64,000 bases of DNA from Candidatus Omnitrophota bacterium (GCA_028712255.1 JAQTQJ010000004.1:19956-83955), one strand, 5' to 3'; counted from the stretch's first letter, positions 19,767 through 61,039 are shown. A program made the numbers and translations. The notes: generated by a model not told the origin, from the sequence alone.

Positions 19767-19892
19767 ATAAAGAGTTGTAAAAATATACCCCTATTGTCTC
19801 ATAGGGGTAGCTGTAAGCCTAATCAAGTTCTATTCTTTATTTTAAACCTAGCATCGTAAGCTGTCAATACAATCTTTATGGGAAATTGGTAG

Positions 19893-19940
19893 AAAACCAG
19901 GGGACGGTTCTCTTAAGAAAGAGAACCGTCCCCTGGTTTT
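19893..19940. terminator. Intrinsic terminator hairpin, family B (aaaaccaggggacggttctctt-aaga-aagagaaccgtcccctggtttt), bidirectional T-tracts
   Basis: Perfect 22-bp stem abutting the radical-SAM stop codon. Confidence 0.8.
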
Positions 19941-20944
19941 TAACTAAACACTCCAGGTAAAATTGCCTGACAAAATTTGCACTTATTGCCTGCAAGGCTG
20001 GATTCGGTTATATTAAATCCTTCCCTTTTAATAATGACTCTTTTGCATTGGATACAAAAAGTATCCTGGCCCCAGCCATAGGCATTACCGGCATACACAT
20101 AACGCAATCCTTGGGCTTTACCCAAATCATAGGCTGCCTTTAGGGTCTGTTCAGGGGTATTTGAATAAGAAGTAAATTTATAATCCGCATGAAAACTAGA
20201 GACATGCCAGGGGATATCTTTACTTATCCCGGAGATAAATTTTGCAATCCCGGATAACTCCTCCGGAGAGTCGTTTTCTCCGGGAATCAGCAAAGTCGTA
20301 ATTTCAACCCAGACTCCAGTATCATATAATAAACGAATAGAATCAAGAACAGGGGCTAATTTTGCCGAACATATCCTTTGATAGGAACTTTCTTTAAAAA
20401 ATTTTAGATCAACATTAGCCGTATCCAAATGCGGCTTAAGCACCGAGATCGCCTTAGCGGTCATATACCCATTAGTAACAAATATATTGGCTATTCCTTC
20501 CTGCTTAGCCAGTATCGCCGTCTCCAATGCAAATTCAAAAAAAATAGTCGGCTCGGTATATGTGTAGGCTATTGATTTACAATTGTTCTGTTTAGCTAGT
20601 TCTATAACCTTAGCAGCGCTAAAGTCTTCCCCAGGATGGTCTTTAAGGAAATCGAGTTGAGAAATTTGCCAGTTTTGACAAAAGCCGCAGCGGAAGTTAC
20701 AACCGGCGCTGGCAATAGAGAAAGCTAAAGAACCAGGAAGAAAATGATTTAGCGGTTTTTTTTCAACTGGATCCACATTTACCGCTACCAACTTGCCATA
20801 ATTATGAGTATAAAGAACTCCCTTGATATTCTGCCTTACCCCGCAAAAACCAAATTTACCTTCCTGAATCTTACAGTTATGCGCGCAAAGCTGGCAGTGC
20901 ACCGTTTGACCGTCTAATCGGACGTAAAGAGAGGCTTCTTTCAT
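19940..20944 (-). CDS. Radical SAM enzyme (AmmeMemoRadiSam-system / PFL-activase-like)
   Basis: N-terminal CQLCAHNC plus CNFRCGFCQN (CxxxCxxC); DPVEKKPL motif; 334 aa. Confidence 0.6.
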   Translation of the reverse strand: MKEASLYVRLDGQTVHCQLCAHNCKIQEGKFGFCGVRQNIKGVLYTHNYGKLVAVNVDPVEKKPLNHFLPGSLAFSIASAGCNFRCGFCQNWQISQLDFLKDHPGEDFSAAKVIELAKQNNCKSIAYTYTEPTIFFEFALETAILAKQEGIANIFVTNGYMTAKAISVLKPHLDTANVDLKFFKESSYQRICSAKLAPVLDSIRLLYDTGVWVEITTLLIPGENDSPEELSGIAKFISGISKDIPWHVSSFHADYKFTSYSNTPEQTLKAAYDLGKAQGLRYVYAGNAYGWGQDTFCIQCKRVIIKREGFNITESSLAGNKCKFCQAILPGVFS

Positions 20945-22488: not shown

Positions 22489-22528
22489 CCAGGGGACGGT
22501 TCTCTTTTTTAAGAGAACCGTCCCCCTT
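22489..22528. terminator. Intrinsic terminator hairpin, family B (ccaggggacggttctctt-tttt-aagagaaccgtcccc)
   Basis: Near-identical core to the 19893 hairpin; just downstream of the HAD gene stop. Confidence 0.75.
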
Positions 22529-22532: not shown

Positions 22533-23165
22533 TTATAACAGATCTAGAAGTCTTTCAATTGAAGGGATAACCCTAAAAGGCCTCTCCTTCTTAATCTGAA
22601 GATTGCTACTTGAGCCGCCGGTAACAATTACGGTCTTGATTTTCGCGCGCCTGCCGGCTTGCGCGTCGATAACCATATCCCCGACATAGAGCGCTTGAGA
22701 CTTCTTAAAGGCAAACCTCCTGATTATCGTATTTAGAATCTGTGGGTGGGGCTTACCATATTTTAATTTATCAGCGCAAAGTACATAATCAAAAAATTTT
22801 ATCAGGCCTAAATGCCTTAAAAGAATAAGAGAAAATTCAGTCGGCCGGTTACTGGCTACCGCCAGCTTGCAACCTTTATTTAAAAGATACCGCAAAAGAA
22901 GCTTAACATGCGGATACAGGCGCGAGTATTTAAGTAAGCTGTGCTTATGATGATTACGGTATAGGCTTAAAGCGCGTTTTAAATGCTTCTTGGGAATATA
23001 CGGCTTAAGAAGATTGGCGTCTCCCCATCCTACAGCCAGGCGGATAGTGTTTGCGCTTTGTGGTTTTAATCCCAGCTTGCCCATCACATAATTAAAACTG
23101 CTATTAATCGCCGCATAGGCATCCACTAATGTACCGTCTAAATCAAAAATAATCAGTTTTAGCAT
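22533..23165 (-). CDS. HAD-superfamily hydrolase (phosphoglycolate-phosphatase-like)
   Basis: IIFDLDGTLVD motif I; 210 aa. Confidence 0.7.
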   Translation of the reverse strand: MLKLIIFDLDGTLVDAYAAINSSFNYVMGKLGLKPQSANTIRLAVGWGDANLLKPYIPKKHLKRALSLYRNHHKHSLLKYSRLYPHVKLLLRYLLNKGCKLAVASNRPTEFSLILLRHLGLIKFFDYVLCADKLKYGKPHPQILNTIIRRFAFKKSQALYVGDMVIDAQAGRRAKIKTVIVTGGSSSNLQIKKERPFRVIPSIERLLDLL

Positions 23166-30431: not shown

Positions 30432-30592
30432 CGCTTAATATTTTACCATATAAAAATTTTAAGCGAAGTTAAATATTAGTAAAAAGGGGCGCTTTTTAGA
30501 GGAACCTTTATGCCGGTAGGCTTAAAGGAAAACGCCCCTTTTGATTCGTTAATCCTTGTCATTCCCGCGAAAGCGGTAATCTACCTACATCC

Positions 30593-30635
30593 GTCATCCT
30601 GAGTCCGCCAATGCTTTAGTGGCGGACGAAGGATC
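30593..30635. repeat. Family A palindromic element variant (gtcatcctgagtccgccaatgctttagtggcggacgaaggatc), preceded by a cccgcgaaagcgg mini-hairpin
   Basis: Immediately 3-prime of the giant ORF stop; likely terminator function. Confidence 0.65.
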
Positions 30636-33600
30636 TATTTATTAAACGCTATTCTTAATTCCTCTCCACTTCTTCCTGATCCCAACACTACCAGGATATC
30701 TTTAAGTGTTGGATCGGTTAAACAACAGCTCTCTTCTTCCATCCTGAGGATATCTGCAATACAAGAGACTATTCTATTGGTATCTTGATCCAGGCTACCT
30801 TTAAAACAGCTAGCAGCAAGATACTCTTTTAGGCGTTCTGCTGATGGGGTGATCCCTGAATTAACTAAACGCTCTATATCTGACCACTCTTGGGTTAGGT
30901 TGATACCTTGTAGAGTGCTTTGAGGCAAACTCCTTATACCTGCTTTGAGGCTATCTATAGACTGGATAACGATAGGCAGAAAGCGGAAGTCGATTCCCCC
31001 AAGCTTCTCACCTTGTCGGGAATCGATGGTGAGGGTAGTCGAACTATCGATGCCGCCGGGAGCAAAAGCAGAATTTGATGAAGAACTTGTTGAGCCGTTG
31101 ATGGGGCCGGTAGTTTTCGGTTTAGCAATCTCATTCTCTAAATATTCTTTAAGATCTGCCAAAATTGAAGCTTTCAAAGATTTATATCCTTTCTGACTCC
31201 TATTAATATCAAGCGCTGATAAAACCCTTGTGACTCTTCCTTCTACGTCTTTGCTAATCATTGCCCATGCAATAGGCACTGGCGGCCTACCCGCTTTCTC
31301 ATAGAACGCAAAAATACCTTCTTGCGTATCATCTATAAGCAATTTCCCCAGCATATCGCCGTAAGAATCCCACTCCCTAAAAATTTCTTTACTCGCTCTA
31401 GGAAATACCTTTCTTAAAGCCTCAGCTTTCATTTTCATTTTAATTTTATCTACAATGAGTTTTGTAATATCGCGCCATGCATCTTTAATTTCATCCGGAG
31501 AGAAAGATGTTTTTGCATCGAGGCCAAAGTATTTAGCAGTTCTTACACCTTGCCGCATTCCCTCAATATACTCCTTTAGAGTTTTAGCGTATTCCTGACT
31601 AAGTATTTCTAAATGTTCTGGATTATTACGATCAAATCCTACTTCAGCAAGCATACTAAATATCTCTTCTTTAAATCTTATGATTTCCGGACTCTCACCG
31701 GAAATTATAAGCTCAAGGCCATTGGGAAGACCTAAGTTTTCTTCATCATCCTTATCAATGCTTCTCTGAGTATCTGCATATCTACGTAATGTTTTATCTC
31801 TTTCTTCTGAAGTTATATGGGACGGTTCTGTTGCTTCATTGCTTCCTGCAAGAGCTTCAGCTGCTACTTGTTTTGCTTCTTTGAATGCTTTCTTTGGATC
31901 ATCGCCCCTTATTGTTTTAACCAATTCTTTGTTCTTTCTTACTTCATAATAAATTTCTCCATTATTAATATAAACCTGTATCTCAACAGAGCCATCCCCC
32001 TGAGATATTGTATTATTTAATCCGTTAGGCATAGTTCCAGAAGCAAGATTGATCCCTGTATCGGGACTAGTGGGATTAAGAGAGCTTGGGGACGGTTCTG
32101 TTTCTCCCGAGTCCATTTCCAGAGAAACAGAACCGTCCCCATTATTCAAAGATACAGCCGCCGCGTATTTCATCGCCTCAGCAAATGTGCCTACTGCATC
32201 GTGGGTAAAATCGCTCAGATGCGCAATATAACCTTCCTGCCAAAATCGCCCTGCATTATCCTGACGCATAAATTCCTCTAACAGATGCCCTAATTCATGA
32301 ACAATCGTATCAGTAGCAGAATCTATCGCGGTTGAATTAGTAGCGGCTCGGCCAATCTCTGAGGCAATAGAGCGGGCAAGAAACATCGTGTGTTTACCTT
32401 GATAAATCTTAAAAGCGCCGGCAAATCTCACTTCATCATTTAACAAAATTATCTGCTCGATGCCAAAATTACGGGCTATCCCCCAAGCCAATGTTACTAA
32501 TTCTCTTTCGTTATCATTATAATCATTCGGGTTGAGAATATACCTTTCCGGACGCTGCATTTGATCATGGCCCAAAGCAATACCTAGGGCTTGCATAACT
32601 TTATTTCCTGAAAAAGGAATATCGCTTAAAGAAGGTAATCTTCCAAGATTGAAACCTCCTGACATTAATAATTCTCTTTGCAATTTAGCTGCACCCAATA
32701 TTGCCTTATTAGTCTCCTCTTGAATCGCCAGGCGCCGCGTTAGAAGGCTTACCTTAGAATCAGAGTTTTGCCTATTAGAGAAAACTTCCAAGAGAAGGAT
32801 AAGTTTAGTAAACTTCTTTTCTTTATCTAACTTCCCTGGTTCTGTAAGTAATCCTCTTAAGGCTTCTTCTGAAATACGCTCAATCCTGCCTACGTTTATA
32901 TCATTGGCTACCCCTAATATCCATCTATCGCTTGCAGGATTAATTGATTGCCAGTAACTATCATTGGTCTCCCAGTCTAAAGGAAACCCTTCAAATACAA
33001 ATTGCGGGCTGCTTTGAGAAAGGGCTTTATAGGCGATTGCCTGAAAAAAGGCAACAGCAACGTAGCGCTGAATCTGAGGAAGAAATTCATTCTCATGCTC
33101 AAAGGCGCTGCGATTACGAATAAGCGGTAGAGGTATCTGGATGATAATCCCTAACTCCTGAATATGCCGGCGTAAAACTGAAGGAATTAATGCTAAGTAC
33201 TCTTCTTTCATTTCACTAACCCTTAAACCTGCTTTATCCACAATCTGTAAGGGCATATCTTTAGCGCTGATAATACGCAAAGGGCCAAAATTCGTCTCAT
33301 CTTTTTCCTGAGGACGGACTGCTTTAAACTCAACTTCAGCTAAGATATCTTTCTCTACAGCGAGCTGCTGCTTTTTACCTTCATGGTCAATAAAAAATAC
33401 CTTAAAATGCTCATCCTGCGCCAGGCCAACAAAGATCTTCCAGGAACGCTGGCTGAGCATCTGGTCCAGCTCGGGTATGGTATTATCCAATGACTTGATC
33501 CGCCTTACGGTTACGCCTTGAGCAACTTTAGGATCAGTTATCTTGCGTATACGCGTTAACTTAACTGCGGTTGGCCTCCCCGAAGAATCTCTAATTACCG

Positions 33601-36600
33601 CAAAAACAAACATATAAGCGCGTTGGCTATTTTTAGTAATAATCTCAAGCCGGTCCACTCCTTCAAACAGCGTATATTTTCCTGTGCCAAAGAACCCGGT
33701 GAGTTCAATCTGGCCTGCGGCTGCCTTAGTAGATTTAGGAATAAGCAAGGCCACCTCTTCTAGGGCGCCGGTCCCATTATCCCGAGCTTCTTCAACATAC
33801 TCTTCTTGGCCTTGAGAGTTTTGCTGAAGGTAAAAATCTACTAATAGCTCCCCGTGTTTACCACGCGTAGCATCACGGGAATTTTGGGCAATCTCAGCAG
33901 TATAGGCGCCAGATTCTCTTTGCACAGTAGCATTAAGTAAAATATCCGATTCTAACTTTGCTGAAGACTGAGGAAGATTAAAAATACTTCTTACAAGTTG
34001 CTCAACGCTCATAACCTTATCCGCGAGCCCGTTCTTTGGCCTTTGCTGCTCAAGTTTAATAATCTGCGACAAGGCTACTGCCTCCTCCGGGCCTCTAGCA
34101 TTAAATTCATCCACACCCTCAGGCTCAGTCCTTTCCTTCTCTCTTAACTGCTCGACATTATTAGTTAAAAAAACCACAAAGGGGCGCGCTTTACCCAGCT
34201 TATGAGCATCCTTAAGTTGAAATGATCTTCGTTCGTTTGCGTCATCAAATAATTCAAAGGCGCTATACAAATCAGATAAATATTTATCTCTGGCTTCTGG
34301 TTTTAAGGCTAATAGCCTATTTATCTGATTGGCAAGGATATGAGCACCATCGGCGTGGTTTGCAGCTTGAAGAGAAACACCTGAGAGAAAATTTATTATT
34401 GATGTAAGCCTTTTAACTTCACCGGGAGTTGCTTCTTTTAGCGCAGCGATGAATTTGATTATTACGGGTAAGATATCTATCTTTTCCTGATAAGTACCCC
34501 AGCCATAAGCAAGGGCTTCAAAAAGTTGATTATCTATCTCAAGATGTTCGATGTTTAACTCTCTCTCCTTAGAAATGCAGATAAGGCTAAAAAACAAATC
34601 AAAATAAAAATCGTATTGATCCTCAATTCTCTCTTGAGAAAGCTGAGTTTTTCTTTCCTGAAGAAATCCGGGCAAAACCCGCAAAAATTGCTGCATCCTT
34701 CGGCTAAAAATATCAAAGGGCAATTCTTCAAGGTTCAAAGGCTGATTATTTTCGAGCGCTTGCCGGAATCTACGATTAATCTCATCTTCTTGGTCTAGAT
34801 AAAGTTCTTTAATCATTTCTCCGAGACTAAAGTCGGACCGATGCTTGAATTCTTCCGGGATTAAATCTAAGAATGGCTGATAAGCAGCCTGCGCCCTAGC
34901 AATAAAAGCGTCACGCTGAGAGAAAACATTATCTCTCCATTTTGCCATAACCTCTTGCGCGTTAATCTGTGCCTCTTCTGCCTGCGCTTGAACTTGAGCG
35001 GGTTGAGGCGCTTGAACAAATACCTTGCGCGGGTCCAGATACCTTATCTCTTGGGTCTGAGGATTAACAAACACAAAATATTCGCCGTTAACGTCTGCAC
35101 AAATAAAATTTTGAGGTACTTGTTTAGTAACACCCTTAATCTCGCCGAAATTATTAACCAAAAGAATGCGTCCATCATGAGTAGCTACAAGAATAAAGTT
35201 ATTATTTTGCTCTATAAAGAATTGATGCTCAAAAAAAAGCGAAGCAACAGGCCTTGACTTATCGGTTATCGCATATACTACTTCAAAACCTCTTTCTGCA
35301 TTTAAAAGATACCAAACCTTGCCACCTTCTAACGACACCACACGATCAGAGGGCTGTATTTGTTTAATATCTGTTAATAATCCGGAATCTAAATTTAAAA
35401 TACACACATCGTGATCACCAGTTGGTAAATAAAAACTACCTTCGTAATGAGAAAAATTACGAAAAATCAAATTATTACCTTGCAGCAAAATGCTCCCCAA
35501 TGGTTCTATGGGAGTACCTCTATTATATTCAAAACCAATTGAGGCCATTACTTCTCCCCAATGCGTCTTATAAGATTCTGGAATTCCATTTGTCTCTTCA
35601 TCCCAAATTGTTTTCTTCTCTAAATCGTATTCTTCCCAGTAACGTCGAGATATCGGGTCTGTTGACGGCCCTGCCTCAATAACTTTAAAAATATTTCGAT
35701 GAATAAATATACCCGGAGCCGCATATCCGCTGGCTCTACTAAATACATCGCACTCTTTAAGTCTCCCATCCTTATTTACTATCAGTAAATAAGTTTTGCC
35801 TCCGTCAGAAGTAACTCTTATTTTACCTCCTTCTTCAAGATCTCGATGTTTAGCTCTCATTGATATAAACATCTCATCTTTCTTTTCTTCTTTTTCATTT
35901 AACCATAAATAATCCAATTTATTGCCGGCCTTAAATATCGCCACTTCTCCGGAAGAATCAATTTCAATGTGGTCAGCGCCTTGGATTAAAAACCTGCCCT
36001 GCCCTAGACTAAATAAACTGTATTTGCCCTGCTTATCCTGGAGAATAACCACATCTGCCTTATCATCTACGCGAAATCCCAACGAATCATGCGTGATTAT
36101 TTGCGGCACCCTATTTGGGGCTGTGTTATAATCACTATATGTAAGGATGTTATTGCCTTGTTTATGCACCGAGAATCTTCCCGAAGCAGACAGAAAAACT
36201 TCTGACGATTCCGATTGCTCTACTCCTGAGGCGGTATCGAGCACAATATAATGCTTCTTATTTGGCGTTCCCAACGGCAACATATCGATTTTCTCTATAA
36301 CCACCAAATTACCCTTTATGGCTACAACAGAGTATGTAGTTCCTATTATGGGCCGTCCGTCAAACAACTGTTGATCTCCCTTATAAATGTAGAAAGAATC
36401 ATTAGATTCATACACAATAAAGGCATCGGTTGACCCTATTCGCTGAACACGAACATATGCAAATGGAGCGGCACGATTTTTATCTTCACGGTTAATAAGG
36501 CTAAAACCTCCGCCGGGTTGCGGAGTAATTATGATAGAATTCGGCGCATCCGCAGGCTTAGTCTCGCTAAATAACGCAGCTGGCTGCACTTGCGGATGAG

Positions 36601-39600
36601 CTAATGGCTCAGCCTCAGTAGATTCTACCTTTTCAACTTCCGCTAATACCTCTATAGCGGCATAATAATTTTCTAGCACCAGAACATTATTATTATTTAT
36701 GAGCTCAAGAATTTCTTTAAGGATTGCCTTGGCCTCAGCTATCCTATTTCCCTTAGCAAATGCCTCAGCTACAGAAACAAGAGCTTCACATTTCATCCGA
36801 ACTTCGTCTTCAGGAATCTTCCTGGTTATCTTCAAGGATTCATCTACTTCACCTATTTGGGCTAACCCTTGAGCTATATTAAATAATAAGCCTGGATAGA
36901 TAGACTTACGAACAACAGAATCCGTATTGAATTGCCCCAAAACTTCCAGTATGCTATTACATAATCGCCCTGCTTCTTTTATATCCCCATTCTCTATCAA
37001 TCCCTTAACTTCATGGGATAGGAACAATAATCTTTCTAGAACACTACCTAGATCCAACTGCTTGATCACAATATCAAATATTTCCTGCAATTTTTCTGGC
37101 CGGACTAAGAATTTATCTGTCCCGACGAAGCTCTTAAGTATGCTATCAAAAACCTGCCCTTTTCGGGTAACATCTGATATTTTGATTGTTATCGAGAGCG
37201 CTTTCTTAAACACGTTTTCTGCATCGGCAATTCTGATCATCTTAAAGTAGGCGGCGGCTACAATAGCCAAGGCTTCCGCCTTATCTTCAGGATCAGTAAG
37301 TTTCTCTGCGATACGTTGCGCTCTTTGCAATAAAGCATAAACTTCTTCTTCTGGTAATTTTGACTCAACTAATGCATTTGTAATATCTAATAACTCTGTT
37401 CCCTTAGACCATGAATTGGGAAACTTTTCTACATTAATGAGTATATCTTCAAATAACTTACCTGCCTCTCTTTGTCTTTCTAGTCTAGAAAATGCCTTGG
37501 CTATAATTGCAAGTATTCGTTCTTTATTATCGAGCTTTTCTACTGTGCCCTTAATCTCTTTTAGCAGAGTAAAAACCTCTTGGATGGTGATATCTGAGGC
37601 GATTAATGCTTCAATAATAGTAGAAATATTCTCACGCAGATCATTATGGCTCATGCCCTTTATCATATTCACTAATTTTGCAAACAAGGCATAAGTTCCA
37701 GCACTTCCTTGTAAACGAGCAGCTCCAGCCAACGCTTCAGTTATAGAAGCAATAGCTCTTGCTTTAGCAGAAGGATCTGGAATGTGGCCTGTAAAATCAA
37801 TAACTTCTTCAAATAGCCCTAACCTTTCAGTAGTACCCATAATAACACCGGCGGATTTATCCATTACCATAACAAAAGCTTTAACCGCTCTAACCATTAA
37901 CCAAGATCTACTACGATTATCATTCTCAAAAACATTTTGTGCCTCAAGATACGCCTTGCGCAGTGTAACAAAAGCTAGATCTTCCTGCCCTATTTCAGCT
38001 TCTGCTAAAGCTGTAGCTATAAGGGCATCACATCCGTCTGCATTCCGATCAGAAGCGTCCTTTTCTACTCTATAAAAATGATGCGCCTTATTCAGCGCTT
38101 CTTTTGCTTCATCAATTCTTCCTGTTTTAGCTAATCCTCTGGCTAATACGGCATAAGCGCGGCATCTTGAATAATCATCAGGCAAGGCCTGCGCAATGCC
38201 ACTGACTACTTTAACTAAATCTAAATCAGCTGGTTCTTTAGCCTGCGCGCCAGCTTCCTTTACGCCTTTTTGCATGCTCATTACAGGAGGCTCTCTTAAA
38301 AATTTATTAATTGCACCGGAATCAATTGCTCCGCTTACCTCTTTAACTTCTGGAATTGCTGTAACTGCCAAGTTATCTTTGGGCTTGGCATGCTCATAAC
38401 TTGTCACCACCTCTTCAGCGGTAATAATGTTTACTCTTTGCAACAGTGAGGAATATTCTTTTTCTTCTTGGGCCGTCAAACCGCCGCTTCTTTTCCTGCT
38501 CAATTCTAATAATCTCCTGCCCAACTCCTGCGGTATAATCACAAAACTTTCGGTTTTGATTACTGGCAGGCGTTCTTCTTTAGCCCAGGTATGCCATAAA
38601 CGGTCAAACTTAAAAAACCTTTTTGTGGCTTCTTGAGTAAAAGGAGCAATAATCAAAGGCAGGTGGCTAGCCCCTCCTAAAGTAACATACGGAATTATCT
38701 CTCCTCCGATTGCGTTTAAGAAACTAGAAAGCTGCCAATCAAATAATTTTCCATGCACAAAAAGTACATCCTTGCCTCCGAGTTCAAGTTTACCAAACTC
38801 TTTCTGCTGAGGCAGGACAATAACCCCCTGATGCCTTAACTCTTGTATTAGGCCGCTGATTACTTCCTGAACATTAGCGCGGATACCTTTTACCAAATGG
38901 CTGCTATTAGCATTGGAATTAATTAAGCCATCAAGGCCAACCATTATGGTATTAATATATTTTATTTTCTCGCGGGTAGTCAATTTGGGATGTTTTACAA
39001 TCTGCTTTATCGCGTACTCTACCCCTTGCTGGAAACTGGGAATCTTGCCGCCTAAATTAAGGCCCATGATAATATTATCCCGGGATTCGGAAACATCCAG
39101 CAAACCGCCTAATTCAAGCATTAAACCGCCTGTTACAGTAGCGCTATCCATAATCTCTCCGGGAATATCTACCGCTATAATTACCTCTCCATTCCTGGCA
39201 AAAGAAACCCGATGGGGAAGCGCTTCATCATGAACAACTTTTACTTTACCCAGTTCTCTATCTATATTTAACTCTAAAGACGCGGGGCGCTTTGTCCCTT
39301 CTTTGGGTACAAACATTTTAGCGAGAACCTCGGCATCCATGCCACTGCCATTATCAACAATAGTTATGGCATGCTCTGAAGTAATTACTTTTACAAACCT
39401 GCCCTGGCTTTCTTCTGGGGCATGAGCCTTGCTCCTCACCGGCACAACTACTCTTTTATTCTCAAACCCGTTAATCTTTACGGGTTCCCTCTGGCCGCTC
39501 ATCTGCGTATAAATATCCACTTCCCCTACAAACGGGAAACGCTGATGTATAGCGTCAGCTATTGCTCCTTGAGAATTACGATGCGTTTCATCACGCTGGC

Positions 39601-42600
39601 TATCCAAGCGCGGAATAGCCTCAACAGTAGACACTTTTACAATAGTGCCATGCTCTATAATTTGGCCGGCATATTCTTGGGCTAGATCCTGATATTCCTG
39701 CGCGGATATCTCTTTAATCTGAATATATCGAGCGCCTTGAGCATCTCTAGTTAGAGTAAGATGATAGGCTTTACTGTTTTCTTTACGTGTAAATATTTCT
39801 ATTTTATCTTCAGCCGAAGGCCCTAACCAATCAATAATCTGCTTTACGCCCTTACTAAATTGGCCTATGCGGAATCCATGCGCATCCAGCCCATTAGATA
39901 CTGCTTCGCATATACTCTGTATCCTTGCATTTTTGTTTTGGTCAACGATCTCTACATCTAATCTTACACCCTCAACAGGATATGTGTCTCCAATAATCAG
40001 GTCTACAACTTCTTTTGCATATCCATTACTGCCAAACCCCTCATATATAGCTTTATATGCAGCTTCTCCTGTAAGAGCAGTATTGAGTTTTAAAAGTTTT
40101 AAAATATCAGGTAATAATTCCCTTGGGATATTTCTTTCTGCCAACCGATACTGTGCCCAGATAAAACGATTAAGGTCGACTAAGTCTATGCTTGGCTGCA
40201 ATTGTATAGTTGCTCTAGCTTTATTCCAAGGCCAGCGTATGCTTTGCGCCCATTCCACTACCATCTTACCCAAATCTATCTGGCCAAATCTATCATAGAA
40301 AAACTGGGCCGGCCCAGAACCAATGACTACGCTCTTGCTACCAGTAGCCGCGCGCGAAGTTGAAGTTGCCAGCTGCGGCGCTGGCGTTACTTGAGCTACC
40401 TTTAACACCTGGCCTTTATTCGTAGTAGATATATACTTTTTGATCGCATCAAATAGATCGGATCCGTCAACATATTGAAGCAGGTTATTGATTGCGGACA
40501 CATTTTTGAAAAATAACCGGATCCTCAGCGGCGTATCATACCCTCGCTTTTCAAATTCTGCCATTAAGAGATTGGCAACACTTGAGCTGACATCTTTTCC
40601 TTGGATTAGATCAATAACTGTTGACCAAGAAAATATTTTCTTTAGGATTACTGACCGTATCTCTTGGCGAACCTTATCCTGATCGGTTTTATCCGGATTT
40701 ACTTGCAAAAGATAATTAATCAGCGCATCAACTTTACCCATAAAATTAAATTTCCAAGCCATACTTAATCGGGTAATTAGATCAATATCCACAGGTAATA
40801 ATTTAAGATAATAATTTCTATCGATTACTATTTTTTCATATGATCCGTCGGGTCTTTTATTAAGCATTAAATTACCGATATGAAAATCCGAATGCGCCAT
40901 ATATATGGTTTCTCCGGAATAGGAATCTGCAACCGGAGTCAACAAATGCGTCAAATAATCCCTGGCAAAATCAGCTAACGCCGCTTTTAGTTTTGAATCA
41001 CTCACTCTTCCTTTCTTATCCGTCTGGGCGGGAACAACCTGGTCGCCCCCATTTAATATCTTCTTAAGCGTATCCCCTGGAGCATATTCCTCAACTTTTA
41101 TTCTGTATCCATATGGCTGCAAAACACGCGATGTGGTTATTGAGCCTGCCGCAGGATAAAATACAGCTGAAGAAAATATCGCATCGTCACTTAAGAAAAA
41201 GCCATCATTAATGTCATCTTTGACCCACAACCTTAAAGTACCCAACAATCGTTCTGCCATAATGTATTGCCGTTCATTTTTAGGGTCTTTAGCAATTAAA
41301 TCTTTCACTGTTTTTTGCATTTGTTCTGCGCGTTCGCCTAATAGAACCTCAAGATTCGGAGATATAATTTTTACCACCTGTCTAGCAACACTCCCATCCG
41401 GTTGTGTCACTGACACTAAATACGCGGTATTAATGGAGCCCCCGCCTAACACTTTTTCTATCCTAAGATGTATTTTTAAATACTCCATTGCTTCAACCTG
41501 TGCAGTATAAAATGCTTTAAAACTTGCCAAGGTTTCTGTGAACACCTCTTCAAACATTGATGCGGTACGTTCATTATATTCAGTAAGCTTTTTATCCCGT
41601 AAATTTTGGGCAAATAAAGATAAGAATACGCGTTGATCGTAATCTTGAAGCGGGCTGTCATTTAAATTAAAACGGAATCCCAGAAAATTAATTGCTTCTG
41701 CCCGGAACTGTTTAAGATATTCAGTTAGCGGTATTGTTTGGCCTGCTTCCATCAGGCGCTTTGACCATTCAGCATAAGCAGCGGATTTAATCCACGCCCC
41801 ATCCCGGACTGTTTGCATACGCTCAATTTCAACTGCCAGCGACTGAAACAAATTACTCTTTACCAGAGTAGAGGCGTTATCATACACATTACTGAACTCT
41901 TCCTTATATTCTTGCGGGATAGCGTAATACTGGCCAAATACTTGTAGGAACCGGACACCGAGCGCGCCAATTGCTTGCCCTGCGGTAGCAATGAATTTAC
42001 CTAACCTTATAGATAATGCTTTAGTTTTTCCAACTGTAGTTTTAAATTGAAATACCGCATTCTCCTGGCGATAATATTCCCGCTCTTTTGCTTGAAACTT
42101 AAGCAGCTGCGGGTTGATCATCGATTCGCCGGGATTAAATACCGCATACACTGCCTCAATCTCAGTATCGGGAATATATGACGGGTTATCCTTCAGAAAC
42201 GCAAAGAATTGTTCTGCTGTTTTACCATACTCCTGCGTTACGTACTTCTTATATTTTTGATATTGCTTGTGCTCTTTTAATTGTCTATCATAACCATGTT
42301 CTTTCCACCGTTTACGATCATAACTGCTTCGGCCATATGATTTCTGTAGCTCTTCCAAGCTCAAAAGATTTTGTGTCGGCCGATAAATTTCATTCTGAAA
42401 ACGCTCATAAGCAGGTAACCACCTCTGTAACCTGGAATCCCGCACAAATGGATCAGCTGGCTGTGTAAACCACGACATAACTGCGGCGCGGTGTGTATAC
42501 GCAGGATCACCGACCAACGCATGTTCCGCAAGAACTTTTGATAAGAAAAGTGTTAGCTCGCTATTGTCCACATTCGCTAAAAATGCCACTAGAATATTTT

Positions 42601-45600
42601 GCATAAGTTGTAATTCTTCTGGTTTCATACCTGAAACATTCCCTAAAATCCATGCGCTGAGTTTCTCCAAATTTTCTGCCCGGAAAAACACAGCGTTATA
42701 TTTTGACAAAAGCCTCTGGAAGAAAACAAAACGCTCAAGTTGTGTCATGGAATAAAAACGGTTCATCCAATCATCAACGCGTTGAACATCCGTAATAGCG
42801 CTAACATCAACGTCGTCTCTCTGTTGCGCTTCTGCCCGAATCTTAGTAATCGTCTCCATGATTACCGATGCAAGATAATCATCATCTCCTGTTACCATTG
42901 CCTTCATAAAATCCATCGCCTGTTTTTCACCAATCTTCATCTCCTCAAGTGTTTTATCCAATGCCATAAAACCACCCAGCATCACTTTTCCATCAAGGCT
43001 ATTGCCCTTCTCGTAAACACTCACTAATTGTTGATATTGTTGATATTCGGCATCCGTATCCACGCGCTCCTGGCGGAAATAATACAACGCATCAAAATTT
43101 CCATATCCTAACTCATTTGATACAAACGTGTAGGCATCGGAAAATTTCCCTTCCTTGATTATGCGGTGGCGCAGATTCGTCAGAAGCTCACGTTTCTGCC
43201 TTCCCGGAGGAGAATAACGCTCAATAAAATAATACGCTTCTTCCAAATCTTTCCAAGAACTCACTGACAATGACGCTGCGTAAAGTTGCAAGCTTACTAA
43301 TTTTGCTTCAATTACAGGGTGAAGAAAATTAAGTTCATCTGAATCCTTGCCATAATAATTAATTAATACTTCCTGTCCAAGAAACCGGCTACGGCCTCCA
43401 ATAGCAGAAATAGATCCTTGATTTTTTATCTTTCTTGCCGATATCTCTGCATTAGACAATGCAAATGATGCATGGATACTATCGGTAAGCGCCTGCAATT
43501 GTTGAATCGATAATAAACTAAGCTTATTTATCAGTGTTGCTTGCGCAGCTTCTGCATCAAAATCGGTAAGCGCTGCATTGGCGAGTGAATTATCATTAAC
43601 CGCATCGGCATAAATAAACTGTCTTGCTTTTCGGACAGTAGTATATTCTAATCTTTTCTTTTTTGCTTGCCCGCTGACAGATTGCGCAATCGCAGCAAGC
43701 TCTTCACGTTGCGGGTTTTGCTCCCATAACAGGTAATATTTTTGGTCCATTTGACGCAAAATAACCTCATAATCTTCTTCATTAACCTTTGATTCTTCCC
43801 TGCTCTTACTTTCTACGCAAAGAATATCTCTTCGAATAGCGCTCTCAATAAAAAATGCTTCGCTCAATGATGCCTTCTGATATGCAATAAACTCGCTACT
43901 TACTAAGAACTGTTCCATCGCCTCCCGGTAGAACACGGCATAAGCCTGAGCTTGTGCTCTATCTGTACTCATCCGGCTAATGCCTTCTACGCTAATTGGC
44001 AACCATAATCGCCCGTCCTTATCTTGAAAATGATTTGCTGTGAATTTTTGTATATACATTCGCAAGAATCCAACTCTATCCCCTTGAGCCATATATTCAT
44101 AAAGCCCTATCTGCTTTCCATACTCCGGTAATTTTGCTTGCTGCAATACCCGGTTAGTCGCTTCCATTCTGAGCCCATAACTTAACGGGTTTACGCTTGA
44201 AAATATATCAAATAGCGACGAACTAAGCCATAAAGTTAGATCCACATACGTCATACGGCCAAACCTGTTATGAATTTCTTCTCCAAGTTCGGTGTCATTT
44301 GGTTGGCGATTAGAATAGTCTTTGGCTTCTTGCAAATCCTGAGTATTACGAATCCATTCGGCGGTAAAGGTAACTAATTGTCCCAATTTCTTCTTCTGTG
44401 CTTCTGATAACCGGCTTGAGAATTGCTCGTAAGAATCAAAATCCTTACGGAGCGCTGCTTCTTCATTAAAAATGTCATGCCACAATGACCCTACAAAATA
44501 CCATTGATGCGGATTTTCGCTCCCAACCAGTCTCTGTTTTCGTATATCCTCATTGGCCCTCTTTGGATAATAAACAAAAGAAGGATCAAGGATATTCTTT
44601 TCAACATACTTCTTGCTTGAAATATACTGCTCGAGAAATATTCTATATGTTTCAAAGTCTTTTTCAGAATCAAAAGAATTTATTAAATTTGAATAAAACA
44701 CGGAGAAATAATACTGCCGAAGCTGCCTTAAATAATCAGAAAGCCATATCCGTGAGCCACCAAACGCAGGATTGGAAATCTTCCCGCTTGCATTAAATGC
44801 TAGTGTAATCGCAGTAATCCTCTTGCCAAAACCATCAAGGCTCAACAGTGAGCCATCAAAAGTAAAGAAATTGTAGACCTCTTGCCACTCCTGAACATTA
44901 GGAGATTCTGTTTGGATATTTAGTAATCGCATAAAGTAATCTCCCAGATAGGGGGCCATATCGTAGCCATCAGGATTATCATTGCGAGAGGAAAGCAGTG
45001 ACAAGGCCAAATATCGAACTACCTCATCTGTACTCTCGGCTGGAAGGCCATCCGCGCATGCAGTATTCTCTTTCAAGAGATACTGGCTGATATATACAAG
45101 TTTCTGCCAACTAAGATAGTAAGATGCCGCATTAAACGGTTGCCTCTGTTGTGTTCCGATAAATTCTTCGATGATGAATTTATATTGCTCTTGCGAAGAT
45201 AGTGTTTTTTGGGTCAACTCCCCCCAAGTATCTTTAAAATCCTGAAATGAAGATTGTTTTAAGTACGTTAAATAATCAAGGACAATAAAATACCCTTCCG
45301 GAGATTTCCAGTACCCCTCTAACGGATGAAAGGCGTTAACATGCGTCAAATCCTGTCCCTGTAAATTCATGCGCAGAAGCGTCGTTCGATCAAATTGACT
45401 TCCATGCGTCCAGTCAGAGCTCCCCTTCACAAAGCTTTCCAGCTTGTTAGATAAATAAATAACCGCGAGTTGATTAAATCCAATACCGTTGATTAACGAA
45501 GGAGAAACTGCATCCGCCTTATATTCCCCAAGACGTTTATCTAAAGGGGTACCGACGTTATTCCAGGTTAAATAATTATCCTGATAATGTGACAATTCAT

Positions 45601-47516: not shown

Positions 47517-47566
47517 AAAAGGGGACGTTTCCCTCTAAGGCTATAGGGAAACGTCCCCTTTTATTG
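47517..47566. terminator. Intrinsic terminator hairpin downstream of secA (aaaaggggacgtttccct-ctaaggctat-agggaaacgtcccctttt)
   Basis: Perfect 18-bp stem flanked by A/T tracts. Confidence 0.75.
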
Positions 47567-47572: not shown

Positions 47573-50491
47573 TTATTTTCCGCAGCATTTTTTATATTTT
47601 TTACCCGAGCCGCACGGACAGGGGTCATTACGGCCTACCTTGGATTGGTGGGATTGCACAGGTTTAACAGCTTGCGCGGGCGCAACAGGTAGCTCCACAT
47701 CAGCATCGTCCCCAGCAGGAGCCTGGAATTTATTCGCCTCAGGATGAGTTAGTTCCTTGGGCAGAGAACTAAAAACCCCTTGGAATCTATCAGGCTTGAC
47801 TGGCTCTAATTTGAAAACAGTCTGCACAGCGTCCTCTTCGATAGCAGCAATCATCTGACTAAACATTCCAAAAGCTTCGCGCTTATATTCAATCAAAGGA
47901 TCCCTTTGCCCATAGGCGCGCAAACCAATACCTTCACGCAAGCTATCCATGGCATAAAGATGATCTTTCCATTTAGTATCGATAATCTGCAGGAAAACCA
48001 TACGTTCTAAATTACGCAATAACTCTGCGCCAATCAGTTTTTCTTTACCTTCATAAGCTAAAAGCATTTTTTGTGTTAAATCATCCTTTAACCCTTCTTT
48101 ATCTTGGTCAGTAAATGCCTTAGCGTCCGTCTCTAGGCCAAAATTTAAGGCCAAGGAATTGATTAAACCCGTTACATCTAAACCAGAGGAATCCCCGTGA
48201 TCATAAATTTTCAGATAATCATCAATCAATTTGGGAATAATTTCAATAATATTTTCTTTTAAAGAAAAACCTTCCAAAATCTGCTTACGCTGGCCGTAGA
48301 TAATTTCCCTTTGTTTATTCATTACATTATCATATTCCAGGAGCTGTTTTCGGATTTCAAAATTGTGCTGTTCTACCCGGCGCTGGGCAATCTCAATCGA
48401 ACCACTAACCCAGGGATGCTCAATAACCTGCCCTTCTTCCAGTCCCAATTTATCCATCAGCCCAATAATCCTGTCAGAGCCAAACAAACGCATAAGATCA
48501 TCCTTCAATGATACATAAAAACGTGATGAACCCGGATCCCCCTGCCTGCCGCTGCGGCCGCGCAGCTGATTATCGATACGCCTGGCTTCATGGCGCTCCG
48601 TGCCTAAAACATGCAAGCCGCCTAAGGCCACTACTTTATCATGTTCAAGGGCAGCTTCGGATTTATAACGATCAAGGATTGCTTTGTACTCAATCTGATA
48701 ATTTGGATCCTCCGGATTTAATTTCTGCTTGGCCACGTTTTTAGCGGTAAACTCAGGATTTCCACCTAAAAGTATATCTGTACCACGGCCAGCCATGTTG
48801 GTAGCAATAGTCACGCCTTTATATCTACCGGCCTGAGCAATAATAATCGCTTCCATTTCATGATATTTAGCATTTAATACCTGATGAGTAACCCCGCGGC
48901 GTTTAAGCATCTCAGAGAGCCTCTCGGATTTATCAATAGTGATTGTACCGACCAATACGGGCTTGCCCAAATTATACAATTCTACGATCTCTTCAACCAC
49001 AGCATCAAATTTCTCTTTTTCAGTTTTATAAATGCGATCAGGATAATTCTTACGCACTAAAAGTTTGTTTGTAGGCAGAACAACTACATCCAATTGATAA
49101 ATACTTTTAAATTCATTGGCTTCGGTAAAAGCAGTACCCGTCATCCCGGCTAGTTTCTCATACATGCGGAAATAATTTTGAAAAGTCACGGTGGCTAAGG
49201 TTTGATTTTCCCGCTCAATCTTTAATCCTTCTTTAGACTCGATTGCCTGATGCAGGCCGTCTGACCAGCGCCTGCCGGGCATAAGCCTGCCGGTAAATTC
49301 ATCGACGATTATCACCTGGCCATCCTTAATCACATAATCCACATCCCGCTCAAAGAACTCCTTTGCCCGCAGGGCCGCAATAGTATGATGACGATACTCA
49401 ATAGTTTCCAAAGCATGAAGGGTATCCACGCCCCAGAGCTTAGAGGCTTTAATCTCCCCTTCTTCAGTTAAAGCTACGGTCTGAGCTTTTTCATCGGCGA
49501 CATAATCAAATCCTTTTCCTAAGTCTATTCCTTTATATTTTGCGTCGATCTCGTCTCTTTCCGTAACCCTACGGCCATTTAATTGTTCAACTATTTTTTT
49601 AGCAGTATAATATTTTTCCGTGGACTCCTCGGCAGGGCCTGAGATAATCAACGGTGTACGCGCCTCATCGATTAATATTGAATCAACCTCATCCACTATG
49701 GCATAATAGAACGGCCGCTGCACCAGTTCTTCAATAGAATATTTCATATTATCGCGCAGATAATCAAAACCAAATTCATTGTTGGTGCCATAAGTTATAT
49801 CGCAGGCATAAGCAATTTTTCTTTCCTCATCGCTCATATCATGCTGGATAGTGCCTACGGACAGCCCTAAAAATTCATAGATCGGCCCCATCCACTCGCG
49901 GTCGCGCCGGGCAAGATAATCATTGACCGTAACCACATGCACTCCTTTACCCAATAAAGCATTAAGATAAGCTGCTAATGTAGCCACTAAAGTTTTACCT
50001 TCTCCGGTGGACATCTCGGCAATCCTACCTTCATGCAAAATAATACCTCCGGCAATCTGCACATCAAAATGGCGTAATCCTATCGTACGCTTAGCTGCCT
50101 CTCTGACTACGGCAAAAGCTTGCGGCAATATATCGGCAAAAATTCTATTGCGGCTAACCTTTAATTTTTCTTTTAACTTTTCTTTCTCTTCGGGTATAGC
50201 CACGCTAAGCATTGCCTGTTGTAAATCTTCAAGCTCCTGAGCAATCTCAACAGATCTATTTTTTAGATGCTCTTTAAATTCATTTGACTTAGCAGTAAGC
50301 TCTGCGTCGCTAAGCGCGCTTATCTTAGGTTCTAGAGAATTCACTATGTTAACAATTCTAGCCACCTCAACCATCTTGTTCATTGAAGGGCTAGGCATAT
50401 CAGAATGCAAAGTCATATTTAATTTAGGAAATCTGTTCCTAATAGCATTCTGTTTATTTTGAAGAATAATTTTTTTAATTAATCCTAACAT
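47573..50491 (-). CDS. secA: Preprotein translocase ATPase SecA
   Basis: MLGLIKK start, DEAD-like motor motifs, C-terminal zinc finger [14 protein letters not shown]; 972 aa. Confidence 0.9.
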
Positions 50492-51712: not shown

Positions 51713-51769
51713 AAATGGGGACAGTTATTTTTAAAATGACGTTTTGAAGAAAAATAACTGTCCCCATTT
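51713..51769. terminator. Intrinsic terminator hairpin downstream of pilT (aaatggggacagttattttt ... aaaaataactgtccccattt)
   Basis: Perfect 20-bp stem, 17-nt loop. Confidence 0.7.
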
Positions 51770-51819: not shown

Positions 51820-52893
51820 TTAAGTTTTCTTTATCCCTTTGTAAGCCAACATAAATTCTTCGCGGCTATCTGCAGCAAGCGCAGCATCCTCTACGCTTAT
51901 TTTGCCGTCATGAGTTAATTTAACCAAAGATTGAGTGAACGACTGCATACCGAATACTGCACCATCTTCAATGTAATGAGGAATCTCCCAAGTCTTTCCT
52001 TCACGAATCAGGCGGCTGATAGTGGGAGTTAGAAGCATAATCTCATAAGCAGGTACGCGGCCAGTCCCATGTTTAACAGGCACCAAACGCAATGAGATTA
52101 CTCCTTTTAGCAGCCAGGCCAATTGATTCCTTACCTCCTGATGCTGGTGAGGAGGAAAAAAGTTAATCAATCTTTCTATGGATTGAGAAGCATTAATTGT
52201 ATGCAAAGTACTCAAAACTAAAACTACAGTTTCAGCAGCAGCCATAGCGCTAGATACGGTTTCAGAATCTCGAATATTAACGATAAACATCACATCCGGG
52301 CTCTGTAAGGTAAAAGCACGCAAAGCAGTCTGATAACTCGGAACATCTATCCCCAGCTCCCGCTGATTTATAATTGACTGCTTATCTTCAAAAGTGAATT
52401 CAATCGGCTCTTCAGCAGTCAAAACATGTTTTCTGCAGTTATTATTAATATATTCAATCATACTGGCAATCGTCGTAGATTTTCCGCTGCCCATACTTCC
52501 GGTCAACAATACTAAACCGCGGGTTTCCAGCGATAGTTTTGTTAACACCTCAGTGGGAAGATTTAACTCTTCAAAGTTAGCTATATTATTGCGCACATTC
52601 CTGATAACAATGGATGGCCAATTTCTTTGCGTAAATACGCTAACCCGGAAACGCCGGTCAAATTCCTCCAGGTATACGGCAAAATCTACATCCAGGGATT
52701 TTCTAAAAATTTCAAGCTGTTTGGTATTAGACAGTTGTTCGGTGGCAAGCATAACATCCTCTACGGTTAAAATCCTGGTATCCATAGAGATTATTTTACC
52801 GTCGATTCTAAGGCGGGGTACGCCTCCGGCTCGGTAAAAAAGATCTGAAGCGTTCCTACCCACCATCTCTCTCATTAACCCTTTAATATCCAT
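51820..52893 (-). CDS. pilT: Type IV pilus retraction ATPase (PilT/PilU family)
   Basis: Walker A GSMGSGKSTT, PilT-family layout; 357 aa. Confidence 0.7.
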   Translation of the reverse strand: MDIKGLMREMVGRNASDLFYRAGGVPRLRIDGKIISMDTRILTVEDVMLATEQLSNTKQLEIFRKSLDVDFAVYLEEFDRRFRVSVFTQRNWPSIVIRNVRNNIANFEELNLPTEVLTKLSLETRGLVLLTGSMGSGKSTTIASMIEYINNNCRKHVLTAEEPIEFTFEDKQSIINQRELGIDVPSYQTALRAFTLQSPDVMFIVNIRDSETVSSAMAAAETVVLVLSTLHTINASQSIERLINFFPPHQHQEVRNQLAWLLKGVISLRLVPVKHGTGRVPAYEIMLLTPTISRLIREGKTWEIPHYIEDGAVFGMQSFTQSLVKLTHDGKISVEDAALAADSREEFMLAYKGIKKT

Positions 52894-60906: not shown

Positions 60907-60993
60907 TGAAAAGCTACTTTTAACTTTTCCAATTTAGCATAGCCGGCTGGCTTTGTCAAACAAATATCGGGGACGGTTCTATTTTAGGGGCCA

Positions 60994-61039
60994 GGGACCG
61001 GTTCTATTTTTTGTTTAAACAAAAAATTGAAACGGTCCC
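60994..61039. terminator. Imperfect family B hairpin downstream of comEC (gggaccggttctatttttt-gtttaaac-aaaaaattgaaacggtccc), preceded by a ggggacggttct half-site at 60969
   Basis: Seen directly. Confidence 0.55.

Follow-up and report, generated by a model that had tools for sequence, protein, structure and literature searches.

The stretch of DNA analysed here, 64,000 nucleotides from a Candidatus Omnitrophota bacterium (GCA_028712255.1, JAQTQJ010000004.1:19956-83955; called the window below, with positions counted from its first letter), carries a giant open reading frame (ORF) on its minus strand, and the subject of this work is a palindrome that lies within that frame (Table 1). The palindrome, an inverted repeat without mismatches, consists of two 20-nt arms, TGGGGACGGTTCTGTTTCTC (32087-32106) and GAGAAACAGAACCGTCCCCA (32122-32141), around a 15-nt spacer. 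It is in frame with the giant ORF and encodes N-GDGSVSLEMDSGETEPSP at residues 5093-5111 of the giant protein, within a low-complexity stretch rich in Ser, Gly, Pro, Asn, and Thr (NNGDGSVSLEMDSGETEPSPSSLNPTSPDTGINLASGTMPNGLNNTISQGDGSVE). By calculation, chance would produce about 4e-6 perfect 20-nt inverted repeats spanning no more than 60 nt in 64 kb. Both arms contain the 12-nt core GGGGACGGTTCT, by which the hairpin can be compared with terminator-type hairpins elsewhere in the window and with hairpins of many other genomes; the comparison suggests that it probably belongs to a dispersed family of palindromic repeats.

The 69-nt segment comprising the hairpin, folded as RNA, has a free energy of -43.6 kcal/mol compared to -17.8 +/- 2.8 kcal/mol for shuffled sequences (z = -9.3), with 21 or more pairs, and thus equals in stability the best terminator of the window (-42.6 kcal/mol). 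The hairpin is flanked by UGAAUAAU and AAGCUCUC, and neither a U-tract nor an A-tract is found beside it on either strand: the coding strand continues into AAGCUCUCUUAA, and the other strand into UUAUUCAAAGAU. It contains no stop codon in any of the six frames; stops are present in every intergenic copy of the window. It lies inside the ORF, 483 codons ahead of the stop of the giant gene. A simple terminator scan took loops of only 3-8 nt, a range outside which the in-gene hairpin falls.

The giant protein comprises TPR repeats and a Peptidase_M48 domain (residues 546-615, positions 45575-45784) with the motif HELSH. A second HExxH motif, HELGH (32285-32299), is located about 50 residues ahead of the hairpin. 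The N terminus appears hydrophobic and similar to a signal peptide, as read unscored from the translation, and two putative GHKL/sacsin-like ATPase motifs (QNSRDA...DNGTGA...GFFGTGKY, ~33.6-33.9 and ~39.3-39.9 kb) may be recognized by eye, also unscored. A query of 465 residues around the hairpin retrieved a single partial homologue, whose contig, together with six metagenome relatives, makes up a set of seven (L001, L122-L127). All seven relatives, 53-60% identical to the window protein, can be aligned up to FTHDAVGTFAEAMKY(V/A)AAV(A/S)L (...AMKY(V/A)AAV(A/S)L) and are unrelated thereafter. The hairpin begins two codons past this boundary motif. The tails that follow the boundary in the relatives consist of 34, 354-394 (one family), 1428, or 3153 residues, compared to 502 in the window, and no hairpin is present at the junction in any of the seven. 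Arms resembling the core with at most one mismatch are also absent from their contigs, which contain a few isolated singletons with two mismatches, none of them at the junction.

The tail of the giant protein ends with a conserved domain of about 125 residues, for which there is no match in Pfam. It has 976 relatives at E <= 1e-3, and among the matches listed all are located at the C termini of proteins of 109-3145 residues. The same domain, with 37% identity, ends the tail of the homologue in L125; it may be a sorting or anchoring module. No relatives were detected for the approximately 340 residues between the hairpin and this domain, so that only the last ~125 residues of the tail have any, and the tail is therefore unusable for finding an empty site. 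The layout of this family, with a conserved body and a variable tail, resembles polymorphic toxin systems; neither alternative tail cassettes nor a second copy of the boundary motif are found in the window. The giant gene of L125 contains two in-frame palindromic insertions in its N-terminal domain (376-447 and 842-910; GTGNRVQGSGYGVQNPEPRTPNP and GDRGQGTGFGKTSVPSTQNPDP) that are absent from the window gene, with arms made of the G-rich heptamers GGGGACA, GGGTACA, and GGGTTC, resembling the core.

With at most one mismatch, the core is found nine times in the window, against 0.09 expected, and none of 100 shuffled sequences reaches that number. The enrichment is about 100-fold, with a density of about 0.1 per kb. 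When two mismatches are allowed, 17 arms are found where about 2.3 would be expected, five of them within the giant gene. The original prediction, made from the same DNA, had set its reading against a 12-mer occurring at background frequency, which is clearly not what is seen. It had described a perfect inverted repeat translated as a linker, and both the repeat and its translation are real, with arms one nucleotide longer than the 19 nt proposed. Its coordinates are accurate to 1-3 nt. The copy read as ATEPSH and placed at 31815..31827 exists, with one mismatch (TGGGACGGTTCT) and at 31818-31829, as does the copy read as IEPSP, placed at 46141..46152 and located at 46140-46151, with one mismatch as well (GGGGATGGTTCT); a further arm in the gene, 31988-31999 (GDGSVE), had been overlooked. 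As for the intergenic stems attributed to the core, those given at 19893 and 22489 are perfect core hairpins (19900/19922 and 22492/22514). At 60969 a single core arm is present, adjoined by a related but different hairpin (60993-61040, GGGACCGGTTCT), and the stem assigned to 62851 (62850-62917) turned out to be related but different (GGGACCGTTTCT).

The arm at 31982..31999 and the hairpin arm have a TCTGTT extension in common. Together, the segments 31818-31833 and 31984-31999 make a degenerate inverted pair that spans about 150 nt of coding sequence, with 14 of 16 positions paired, including one G-U. The arm read as IEPSP is located in a non-conserved linker past the N-terminal domain, and the homology with L125 stops upstream of it, at residue 357.

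Outside the giant gene, the core is found in hairpins that follow genes. That at 19886..19947 is of the bidirectional intrinsic-terminator type, overlaps the stop codon of the ORF 19940..20944 (minus strand), and matches a hairpin in L116, a locus of an Omnitrophota metagenome-assembled genome (MAG), with 92% identity over 51 nt. The hairpin at 22492..22525 is located 7 nt downstream of the ORF 22533..23165 (minus), and the elements at 60969..61040 are directly downstream of the ComEC gene (61046..62461, minus; named after the NCBI entry for the identical protein). The variant stems GGGGACGTTTCCC, GGGGACAGTTAT, GGGACCGGTTCT, and GGGACCGTTTCT form hairpins after four genes of the window other than those that precede the two perfect core hairpins. 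Since its stems occur in A/U-flanked hairpins after genes, the core is the stem of ordinary hairpins of the intrinsic-terminator type in this genome. The giant gene has a terminator-type hairpin of its own, with a stem of a different family (Table 1). A 30-nt inverted repeat of another sequence (63328-63392, 97% complementary, 5-nt loop), located between the convergent ORFs 62855..63331 (plus) and 63389..63973 (minus), is probably a bidirectional terminator. The window also encodes a PilT/PilU type IVa pilus ATPase (51820-52893, minus) and the competence protein ComEC/Rec2 (61046-62461, minus), both named after identical proteins at NCBI.

The window additionally contains copies of a second family of dispersed repeats, TGTC/CGTC-ATTGCGAG...GCGACGAAGCAATC. 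One of its copies, TGTCATTCCCGCGAAAGCGGTAATCTA (30557-30583), fits the definition of the CGTC-1 class of repetitive extragenic palindromic (REP) elements, with the tag, an 8-bp AT... stem, a 4-nt loop, and a CCA-like tail. Another (30592-30637) provides the TAG stop codon of the giant ORF, and in L125 the giant gene is followed by a related copy, 82-87% identical (L125 21457-21536).

Table 1. Positions of the giant gene, of the hairpins and arms with the core, and of further repeats in the window, and of segments with core elements at loci of other genomes (L numbers).
Feature	Sequence	Positions	Strand	Details
Giant ORF	window	30635..47419	-	5594 aa
Conserved boundary motif	window	32147..32209	-	FTHDAVGTFAEAMKYAAAVSL; aa 5071-5091; last segment alignable with all seven relatives
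Conserved C-terminal domain	window	30641..31033	-	aa ~5463-5593, ~125 residues (GGIDFRFLPIV...CCLTDP...)
Perfect in-gene hairpin	window	32087..32141	-	55 nt; core GGGGACGGTTCT in both arms
Degenerate solo arm	window	31982..31999 (core part 31988-31999, GGGGATGGCTCT)	-	GGGGATGGCTCTGTTG on coding strand; 2 mismatches; encodes GDGSVE
Degenerate solo arm	window	31817..31834 (core part 31818-31829, TGGGACGGTTCT)	+	TGGGACGGTTCTGTTG; 1 mismatch; coding strand reads ATEPSH
Solo arm	window	46139..46153 (core part 46140-46151)	+	GGGGATGGTTCT; 1 mismatch; read as IEPSP
Intergenic core hairpin	window	19886..19947		perfect arms 19900-19911 / 19922-19933; A-tract and T-tract extend stem; dG -42.6 kcal/mol
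Intergenic core hairpin	window	22492..22525		GGGGACGGTTCTCTT / AAGAGAACCGTCCCC; 4-nt loop; T-rich tails; dG -30.3 kcal/mol
Solo perfect core arm and variant hairpin	window	60969..61040		arm 60969-60980; hairpin 60993-61040, GGGACCGGTTCT.../...GAAACGGTCCCT
Variant terminator hairpin	window	47517..47562		AAAAGGGGACGTTTCCC...; 2 mismatches to core; between ORF 47573..50491 (-) and giant ORF start
Variant terminator hairpin	window	51713..51769		GGGGACAGTTATTTTT; 2 mismatches to core; downstream of PilT gene 51820..52893 (-)
Terminator-type hairpin of giant gene	window	30482..30542	-	AAAAGGGGCGCTTT / AAAACGCCCCTTTT; U-tracts; dG -30 kcal/mol; stem of different family
Second-family copy	window	30557-30583		
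Second-family copy	window	30592-30637		
Second-family copy	window	16526-16558	-	
Second-family copy	window	17565	+	
Second-family copy	window	17652	-	
Second-family copy	window	28817	+	
Second-family copy	window	28894	-	
In-gene core copy	L019	6945-8000		= L135 473-2065
In-gene core copy	L134	480-1919		
In-gene core copy	L016	5859-8000		
In-gene core copy	L136	1001-2531		
In-gene core copy	L028	4230-5333		
In-gene core copy	L075			
In-gene core copy	L012			
Core array/hairpin	L013	1301-1400, 4448-4570, 5710-5790		
Core array/hairpin	L059	4808-4990		
Core array/hairpin	L038	1934-2150		
Core array/hairpin	L020	5311-5461		

A scan of one genome per species with the exact pattern GGGGACGGTTCT-N(0-30)-AGAACCGTCCCC located core hairpins at no fewer than 120 loci. 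With L002-L121 and L128-L133 taken together, core hairpins and arrays are present at more than 120 loci, distributed among at least 8 phyla. Among the loci listed, the hosts are Bacillota (Lachnospiraceae, Syntrophomonas, Bacillaceae, and others), Bacteroidota, Actinomycetota, Omnitrophota (8 MAGs), Aminicenantes, Elusimicrobiota, Planctomycetales, and a 'delta proteobacterium'. In a viral collection, the true pattern was found at 6 loci with 11 hairpins, and two scrambled cores of matched composition were not found at all. Beyond the hairpins by which the loci were selected, 93 arms are present in 858 kb, compared to about 4 expected by calculation.

The flanks that surround the invariant core are specific for each genome, yet they are paired. 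With 88 hairpins aligned in a fixed register, each of the 16 variable pairs shows changes on both its sides in 21-45 sequences, and the covariation score amounts to 0.50, compared to 0.13 after shuffling (none of 500 trials attained 0.50) and 0.08-0.11 when the partners are slid. A further pairing, of the outer flank with the stretch directly inward of the core, is found in 48 of 124 hairpins, where about 7 would be expected (L131, 249-4275, is a clear case), so that each arm can be folded alone, with the 12-mer as its loop, resembling REP doublets; the fixed-register signal for this pairing is weak, is seen at offsets of +-1 only, and is not evident for the in-gene copy of the window. The core also forms tandem arrays with genome-specific spacers and periods of 21, 23, 34, and 42 nt. 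An origin of the arrays from coding repeats was rejected because two of the periods, 23 and 34 nt, cannot be divided by three.

No mobilizing gene could be linked to this family among the 120 loci listed. All-against-all clustering of 2504 ORFs from the 120 listed loci revealed no transposase and no other family enriched nearby; the clusters consist only of ABC ATPases, response regulators, and aminotransferases. No autonomous insertion sequence (IS) with matching ends was found near these loci either. A Y1 transposase is present at one of the 120, in a Muribaculaceae genome, flanked by a different repeat, and none is encoded in the window. The Muribaculaceae gene (L135 3001-4088) encodes a 148-residue Y1 transposase of the IS200/RAYT type, with the HUH motif HVHMLV and repeats of its own on both sides (ACCCGCNNCGCGGGTGACAG...), in an arrangement similar to a REPtron. 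It lies two genes downstream of a hairpin-bearing gene described below, and was rejected as the mobilizer since it is flanked by a different repeat and was not found elsewhere.

Searches for a known identity were equally negative. There was no Rfam match at gathering score in 13 loci, and a permissive Rfam scan of array-rich loci gave only matches to microRNAs and internal ribosome entry sites at the level of chance (E about 0.7). Neither the 12-mer nor its 10-mer core was found in a bacterial context in the searchable literature. Annotated plasmid and phage collections contained no core matches, although matches this short cannot reach significance there. CsrA-type GGA sponges, polar motifs of the KOPS/Chi type, IS50-like ends, mimicry of tRNA or tmRNA, and integron attC sites were dropped, having no match to the core, as were DnaA and parS boxes, present only in the flanks of single genomes.

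Several core hairpins lie deep within long open frames that are real genes, encoding Mfd, dihydrolipoyl dehydrogenase (Lpd), CobT, a U32 peptidase, and a radical-SAM enzyme. In Mfd from a Prevotellaceae MAG the hairpin is positioned between domains; two orthologues carry it, and in relatives with 73-83% identity only a short variable linker is found at that place. The CobT that carries a copy matches the full Pfam profile (E = 2e-122), and the hairpin peptide forms an insertion of about 10 residues in a loop when compared with the solved enzyme from T. thermophilus. The Lpd of a Muribaculaceae MAG, the gene upstream of the Y1 transposase mentioned above, is decorated at three sites and is 530 residues long, compared to 436-446 in ordinary Muribaculaceae. 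Site one contains three units in the 530-residue protein, one unit in its homologue P0153 (74% identical in the alignment and 70% by the BLAST measure), and none in other Lpds; site two is common to these two proteins only, and site three is found only in the 530-residue protein. The peptides encoded by the in-gene hairpins correspond to the three frames of the core, namely GDGS, GTVL or GRF, followed by EPSP, RTVP, or NRP. The verified intragenic copies all preserve the frame, which fits translation through the element and not its removal from the RNA.

Comparison of the two Mfd orthologues, which share 89.2% of their nucleotides, reveals how the palindrome may be maintained. Their hairpin arms differ only by a C->T change and an exactly paired G->A change, both non-synonymous (P->S and G->E); two more changes are located in the loop, and the arms are perfect in both versions. 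Paralogous copies within one genome also differ by fully compensated blocks (L052 vs L115). The evidence for compensatory change thus consists of one orthologous pair and of comparisons of paralogues, and from these sequences the palindrome would seem to be maintained, with the encoded peptide free to change. Template switching during replication can create perfect stems and can change both sides of a pair in a single event (PMC8794818), and it would therefore keep the palindrome without selection. Decay is observed as well: the Lpd orthologues each have one uncompensated arm mutation. The conservation of the Lpd hairpins, 96.7% compared to 90.7% gene-wide, was rejected as a sign of selection, being not significant, with 21% of windows of the same size at or above 98%. 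The degenerate arms at 31818, 31988, and 46140 in the window fit such decay after insertion.

Taken together, these observations make it probable that the 32.1-kb hairpin is an intragenic, in-frame, and translated copy of a dispersed REP-like palindromic repeat, residing in a linker. Such an assignment is favoured because the in-gene copy has the core of the terminators, extended and without a U-tract; because its site is a permissive linker at the end of the conserved body, and the hairpin is absent from every homologous giant gene found; and because housekeeping genes of other phyla carry polymorphic, in-frame insertions of the same family. In the lineage of the window, the permissive linker would have received the element, or else one arm would have been copied into the other there by template switching, and the hairpin would have been retained because it is stop-free and kept the frame open. 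It would now be merely translated into 18-19 linker residues, with the ribosomes on the mRNA keeping the hairpin unwound so that transcription would not terminate. The arms could be kept complementary by intramolecular template-switch correction, or else by selection on the structure at the level of DNA or RNA, and the comparison of the Mfd genes implies that one or the other is at work. Older, decayed copies would be represented by the arms at 31818, 31988, and 46140. The proposal, made in the original prediction, that a hairpin element invaded or seeded the linker gains support from the dispersed family, from the low-complexity nature of the linker, and from the divergence of the homologues at this point without a hairpin, and it is supported further by the in-frame presence/absence and copy-number polymorphism in Lpd and Mfd.

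Several points weigh against such an insertion. At 32.1 kb it is suggested by analogy and by absence from relatives that are all at most 60% identical and whose tails are unrelated. The position of the hairpin within two codons of the end of homology could equally mark a recombination junction. To judge from the compensatory change in Mfd, the structure appears to be actively kept, and a purely neutral passenger needs no upkeep. Finally, no mobilizing enzyme is linked to the core family among the 120 listed loci.

A different view is that the hairpin is a functional structure in RNA or DNA, namely a pause, attenuation, or processing site by which the 15-kb body of the transcript could be uncoupled from its 1.5-kb tail, as when translation falls behind transcription. 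A regulatory pause or attenuation site had also been put forward in the original prediction. The extreme stability of the hairpin and its perfect arms would agree with such a role, as would its location exactly at a module boundary and the preservation of the palindromes of the family by compensatory change despite amino-acid replacements; whether giant Omnitrophota transcripts act as single units is, moreover, an open question (10.1101/2023.11.21.568195). We nevertheless find a regulatory role unlikely, with the U-tract absent on both strands and the hairpin absent from all seven homologous giant genes. Other copies of the element are located at arbitrary permissive positions in unrelated enzymes such as Lpd, Mfd, and CobT, where an internal terminator would be harmful, and the Lpd copies show uncompensated arm mutations. 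Termination here would leave an mRNA with no stop codon, a substrate for ribosome rescue and not a product. The hairpin may also be seen as marking a fusion, in which the tail was joined to the body through a terminator-type repeat or an intergenic terminator was absorbed into the frame. The homology with every relative ends no more than two codons from the hairpin, the tails of the relatives are wholly different, the 340 residues past the hairpin are without relatives, and the usual place of the family is directly after stop codons. However, tails are exchanged at this point also in the relatives, which have no hairpin there, which means that the junction is variable regardless of the repeat, and the presence of the same C-terminal domain at the end of the L125 homologue indicates that the architecture of body plus tail is no recent accident. 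Inspection of the used frame around the hairpin revealed no remnants of a stop codon or start site, the window contains no alternative tail cassettes, and the family is also found within single-domain enzymes, where a fusion is impossible. A scar of this kind is therefore, in our estimate, quite unlikely.

If the 12-mer were an uptake signal for transformation, its inverted pairs could double as terminators and its copies in genes would be tolerated. Its strong over-representation, the terminators formed by its inverted pairs, and the tolerated peptides encoded by its in-gene copies are all in line with that, as is the presence in the window of genes for ComEC and a PilT ATPase. The low density of the core in the window (~0.1 per kb), its identity in at least 8 phyla that include gut Bacillota, Bacteroidota, and Actinomycetota, and the tandem arrays (periods 21-34 nt) and covarying flanks, untypical of uptake sequences, make this explanation very improbable. 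Least credible of all is an origin by coincidence, by selection on the peptide, or by an artefact of assembly, even though the source is a MAG and the peptide is an ordinary low-complexity linker. A repeat of this quality is practically not expected in 64 kb, and the motif of its arms is enriched about 100-fold. The ORF runs on in frame for 483 codons into a domain found only at the C termini of proteins. The flanks are not inverted copies of each other, unlike those of a fold-back chimera, and the segment in common with other copies, 12-13 nt, is too short to mislead an assembler.

The preference for a translated REP-like repeat has practical consequences. Software for predicting terminators would report an 'internal terminator' within this gene of 17 kb, whereas the evidence points to a translated repeat, and the giant ORF should accordingly be treated as one gene. 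The hairpin should not be taken to prove that giant transcripts are subdivided. The giant genes of this phylum would join the short list of cases, together with Rickettsia palindromic elements (RPEs) and intragenic REPs, in which selfish palindromes become protein, and insertion at a module boundary could matter as a supply of new linker material in the building of such proteins.

Palindromic repeats turned into protein sequence are of a known kind, and the core family itself appears, to judge from Rfam and the searchable literature, to be undescribed. It is distinguished by the set of a 12-nt core common to at least 8 phyla, by its occurrence as terminators, arrays, and in-frame insertions, and by the lack of a linked transposase. 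We can speculate, with rather less confidence than would be needed for a firm proposal, that GGGGACGGTTCT is the invariant core of an undescribed hairpin family spanning many phyla, found in terminator stems, arrays, and in-frame insertions, the palindromes of which are actively kept at the expense of the peptide. Should this be true, the conservation of a single 12-mer in AT-rich Clostridia and Omnitrophota as well as in GC-rich Actinomycetota, with no linked transposase, would imply a widely conserved factor acting in trans or a function specific to the core; candidates for a factor recognizing it would be a nuclease, a transposase, or a nucleic-acid-binding protein. The elements in giant Omnitrophota genes would then supply module boundaries with new linker sequence. 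A core family that crosses phyla and preserves its pairing despite amino-acid changes may be a larger finding than the hairpin of the window, and, if truly undescribed, it would offer a handle on how REP-like elements without a transposase spread and persist, with a defined motif and filled and empty sites.

Compared to known systems, the in-gene copy has the stem-loop of an intrinsic terminator but neither the U-tract nor the position after a stop. The copies at 19.9 and 22.5 kb are GC-rich, are positioned between A-/U-tracts directly after stops, and have the same stem as the in-gene copy. Miniature inverted-repeat transposable elements leave target-site duplications; the flanks of the core elements are mutually complementary and are not direct repeats. 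DNA uptake sequences (DUS of Neisseria, and USS of Haemophilus) are lineage-specific, have a cognate receptor, occur about once per kb, form terminators as inverted pairs, and occupy tolerated frames in genes. The core is similar in being an over-represented 10-12-mer with inverted-pair terminators, and different in its distribution across phyla, its longer covarying palindromes, and its arrays. Template-switch mutagenesis (Monttinen & Loytynoja 2022, PMC8794818) explains stems formed in one step and paired changes such as those in Mfd, but it is a mutational mechanism and not an element family, and it leaves the 12-mer common to many phyla unexplained. PARCEL (PMC2996958) and BrickBuilt (PMC4596501) were considered as identities and rejected as different elements.

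The likeness is closer to palindromes that are themselves found in genes. RPEs, reportedly described by Ogata and co-workers in 2000, are said to be about 100-150 bp long, to be restricted to Rickettsia, and to be located in frame in genes and translated. As with the RPEs, members of the core family are palindromes in frame in coding genes, translated, tolerated at surface or linker positions, and subject to later decay. The differences are in size, 30-55 bp in the family of the window (with 55 bp for the in-gene copy of this Omnitrophota MAG), in its doubling as a terminator stem, and in its presence in many phyla. REPINs, reportedly the subject of studies by Bertels and Rainey in 2011 and by Nunvar in 2010, are said to be REP doublets that form hairpins and are mobilized by RAYT Y1 transposases. 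The inverted doublet is a feature in common with REPINs, and in the subset of hairpins counted above the arms may be able to fold by themselves as well, but no RAYT is linked to the core family among the 120 listed loci. There is no GTAG in or beside the core of the window element, and no unpaired terminal tag, in contrast to GTAG-type REPs and REPINs.

The REPs of the CGTC type have a tag, a stem of 8-9 bp beginning with AT..., a loop of 4-5 nt, and a CCA-like tail; in AGAACCGTCCCC, CGTC is located within the paired arm, and the stems differ. The 12-nt core of the window family is common to at least 8 phyla, including Bacillota and Omnitrophota, with genome-specific flanks and tandem arrays, and this sets it apart from REPs. 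In other respects the agreement is extensive. The GTAG- and CGTC-tagged REPs surveyed by Di Nocera, De Gregorio & Rocco (2013, PMC3733652), where RPEs are also discussed, are palindromic, mostly positioned just downstream of genes, and often arranged as inverted doublets. A minority are in frame and wholly within ORFs, repair genes among them; they occur singly, as dimers, or in clusters and encode about 20-80 residues. REPs of the CGTC type have no dedicated transposase (PMC3733652). The core family is likewise short, multi-copy, mainly extragenic, and placed downstream of genes, both in the window and in other genomes, and the window element matches the intragenic REPs in every one of the behaviours listed, from downstream placement and doublets to in-frame copies and the lack of a transposase.

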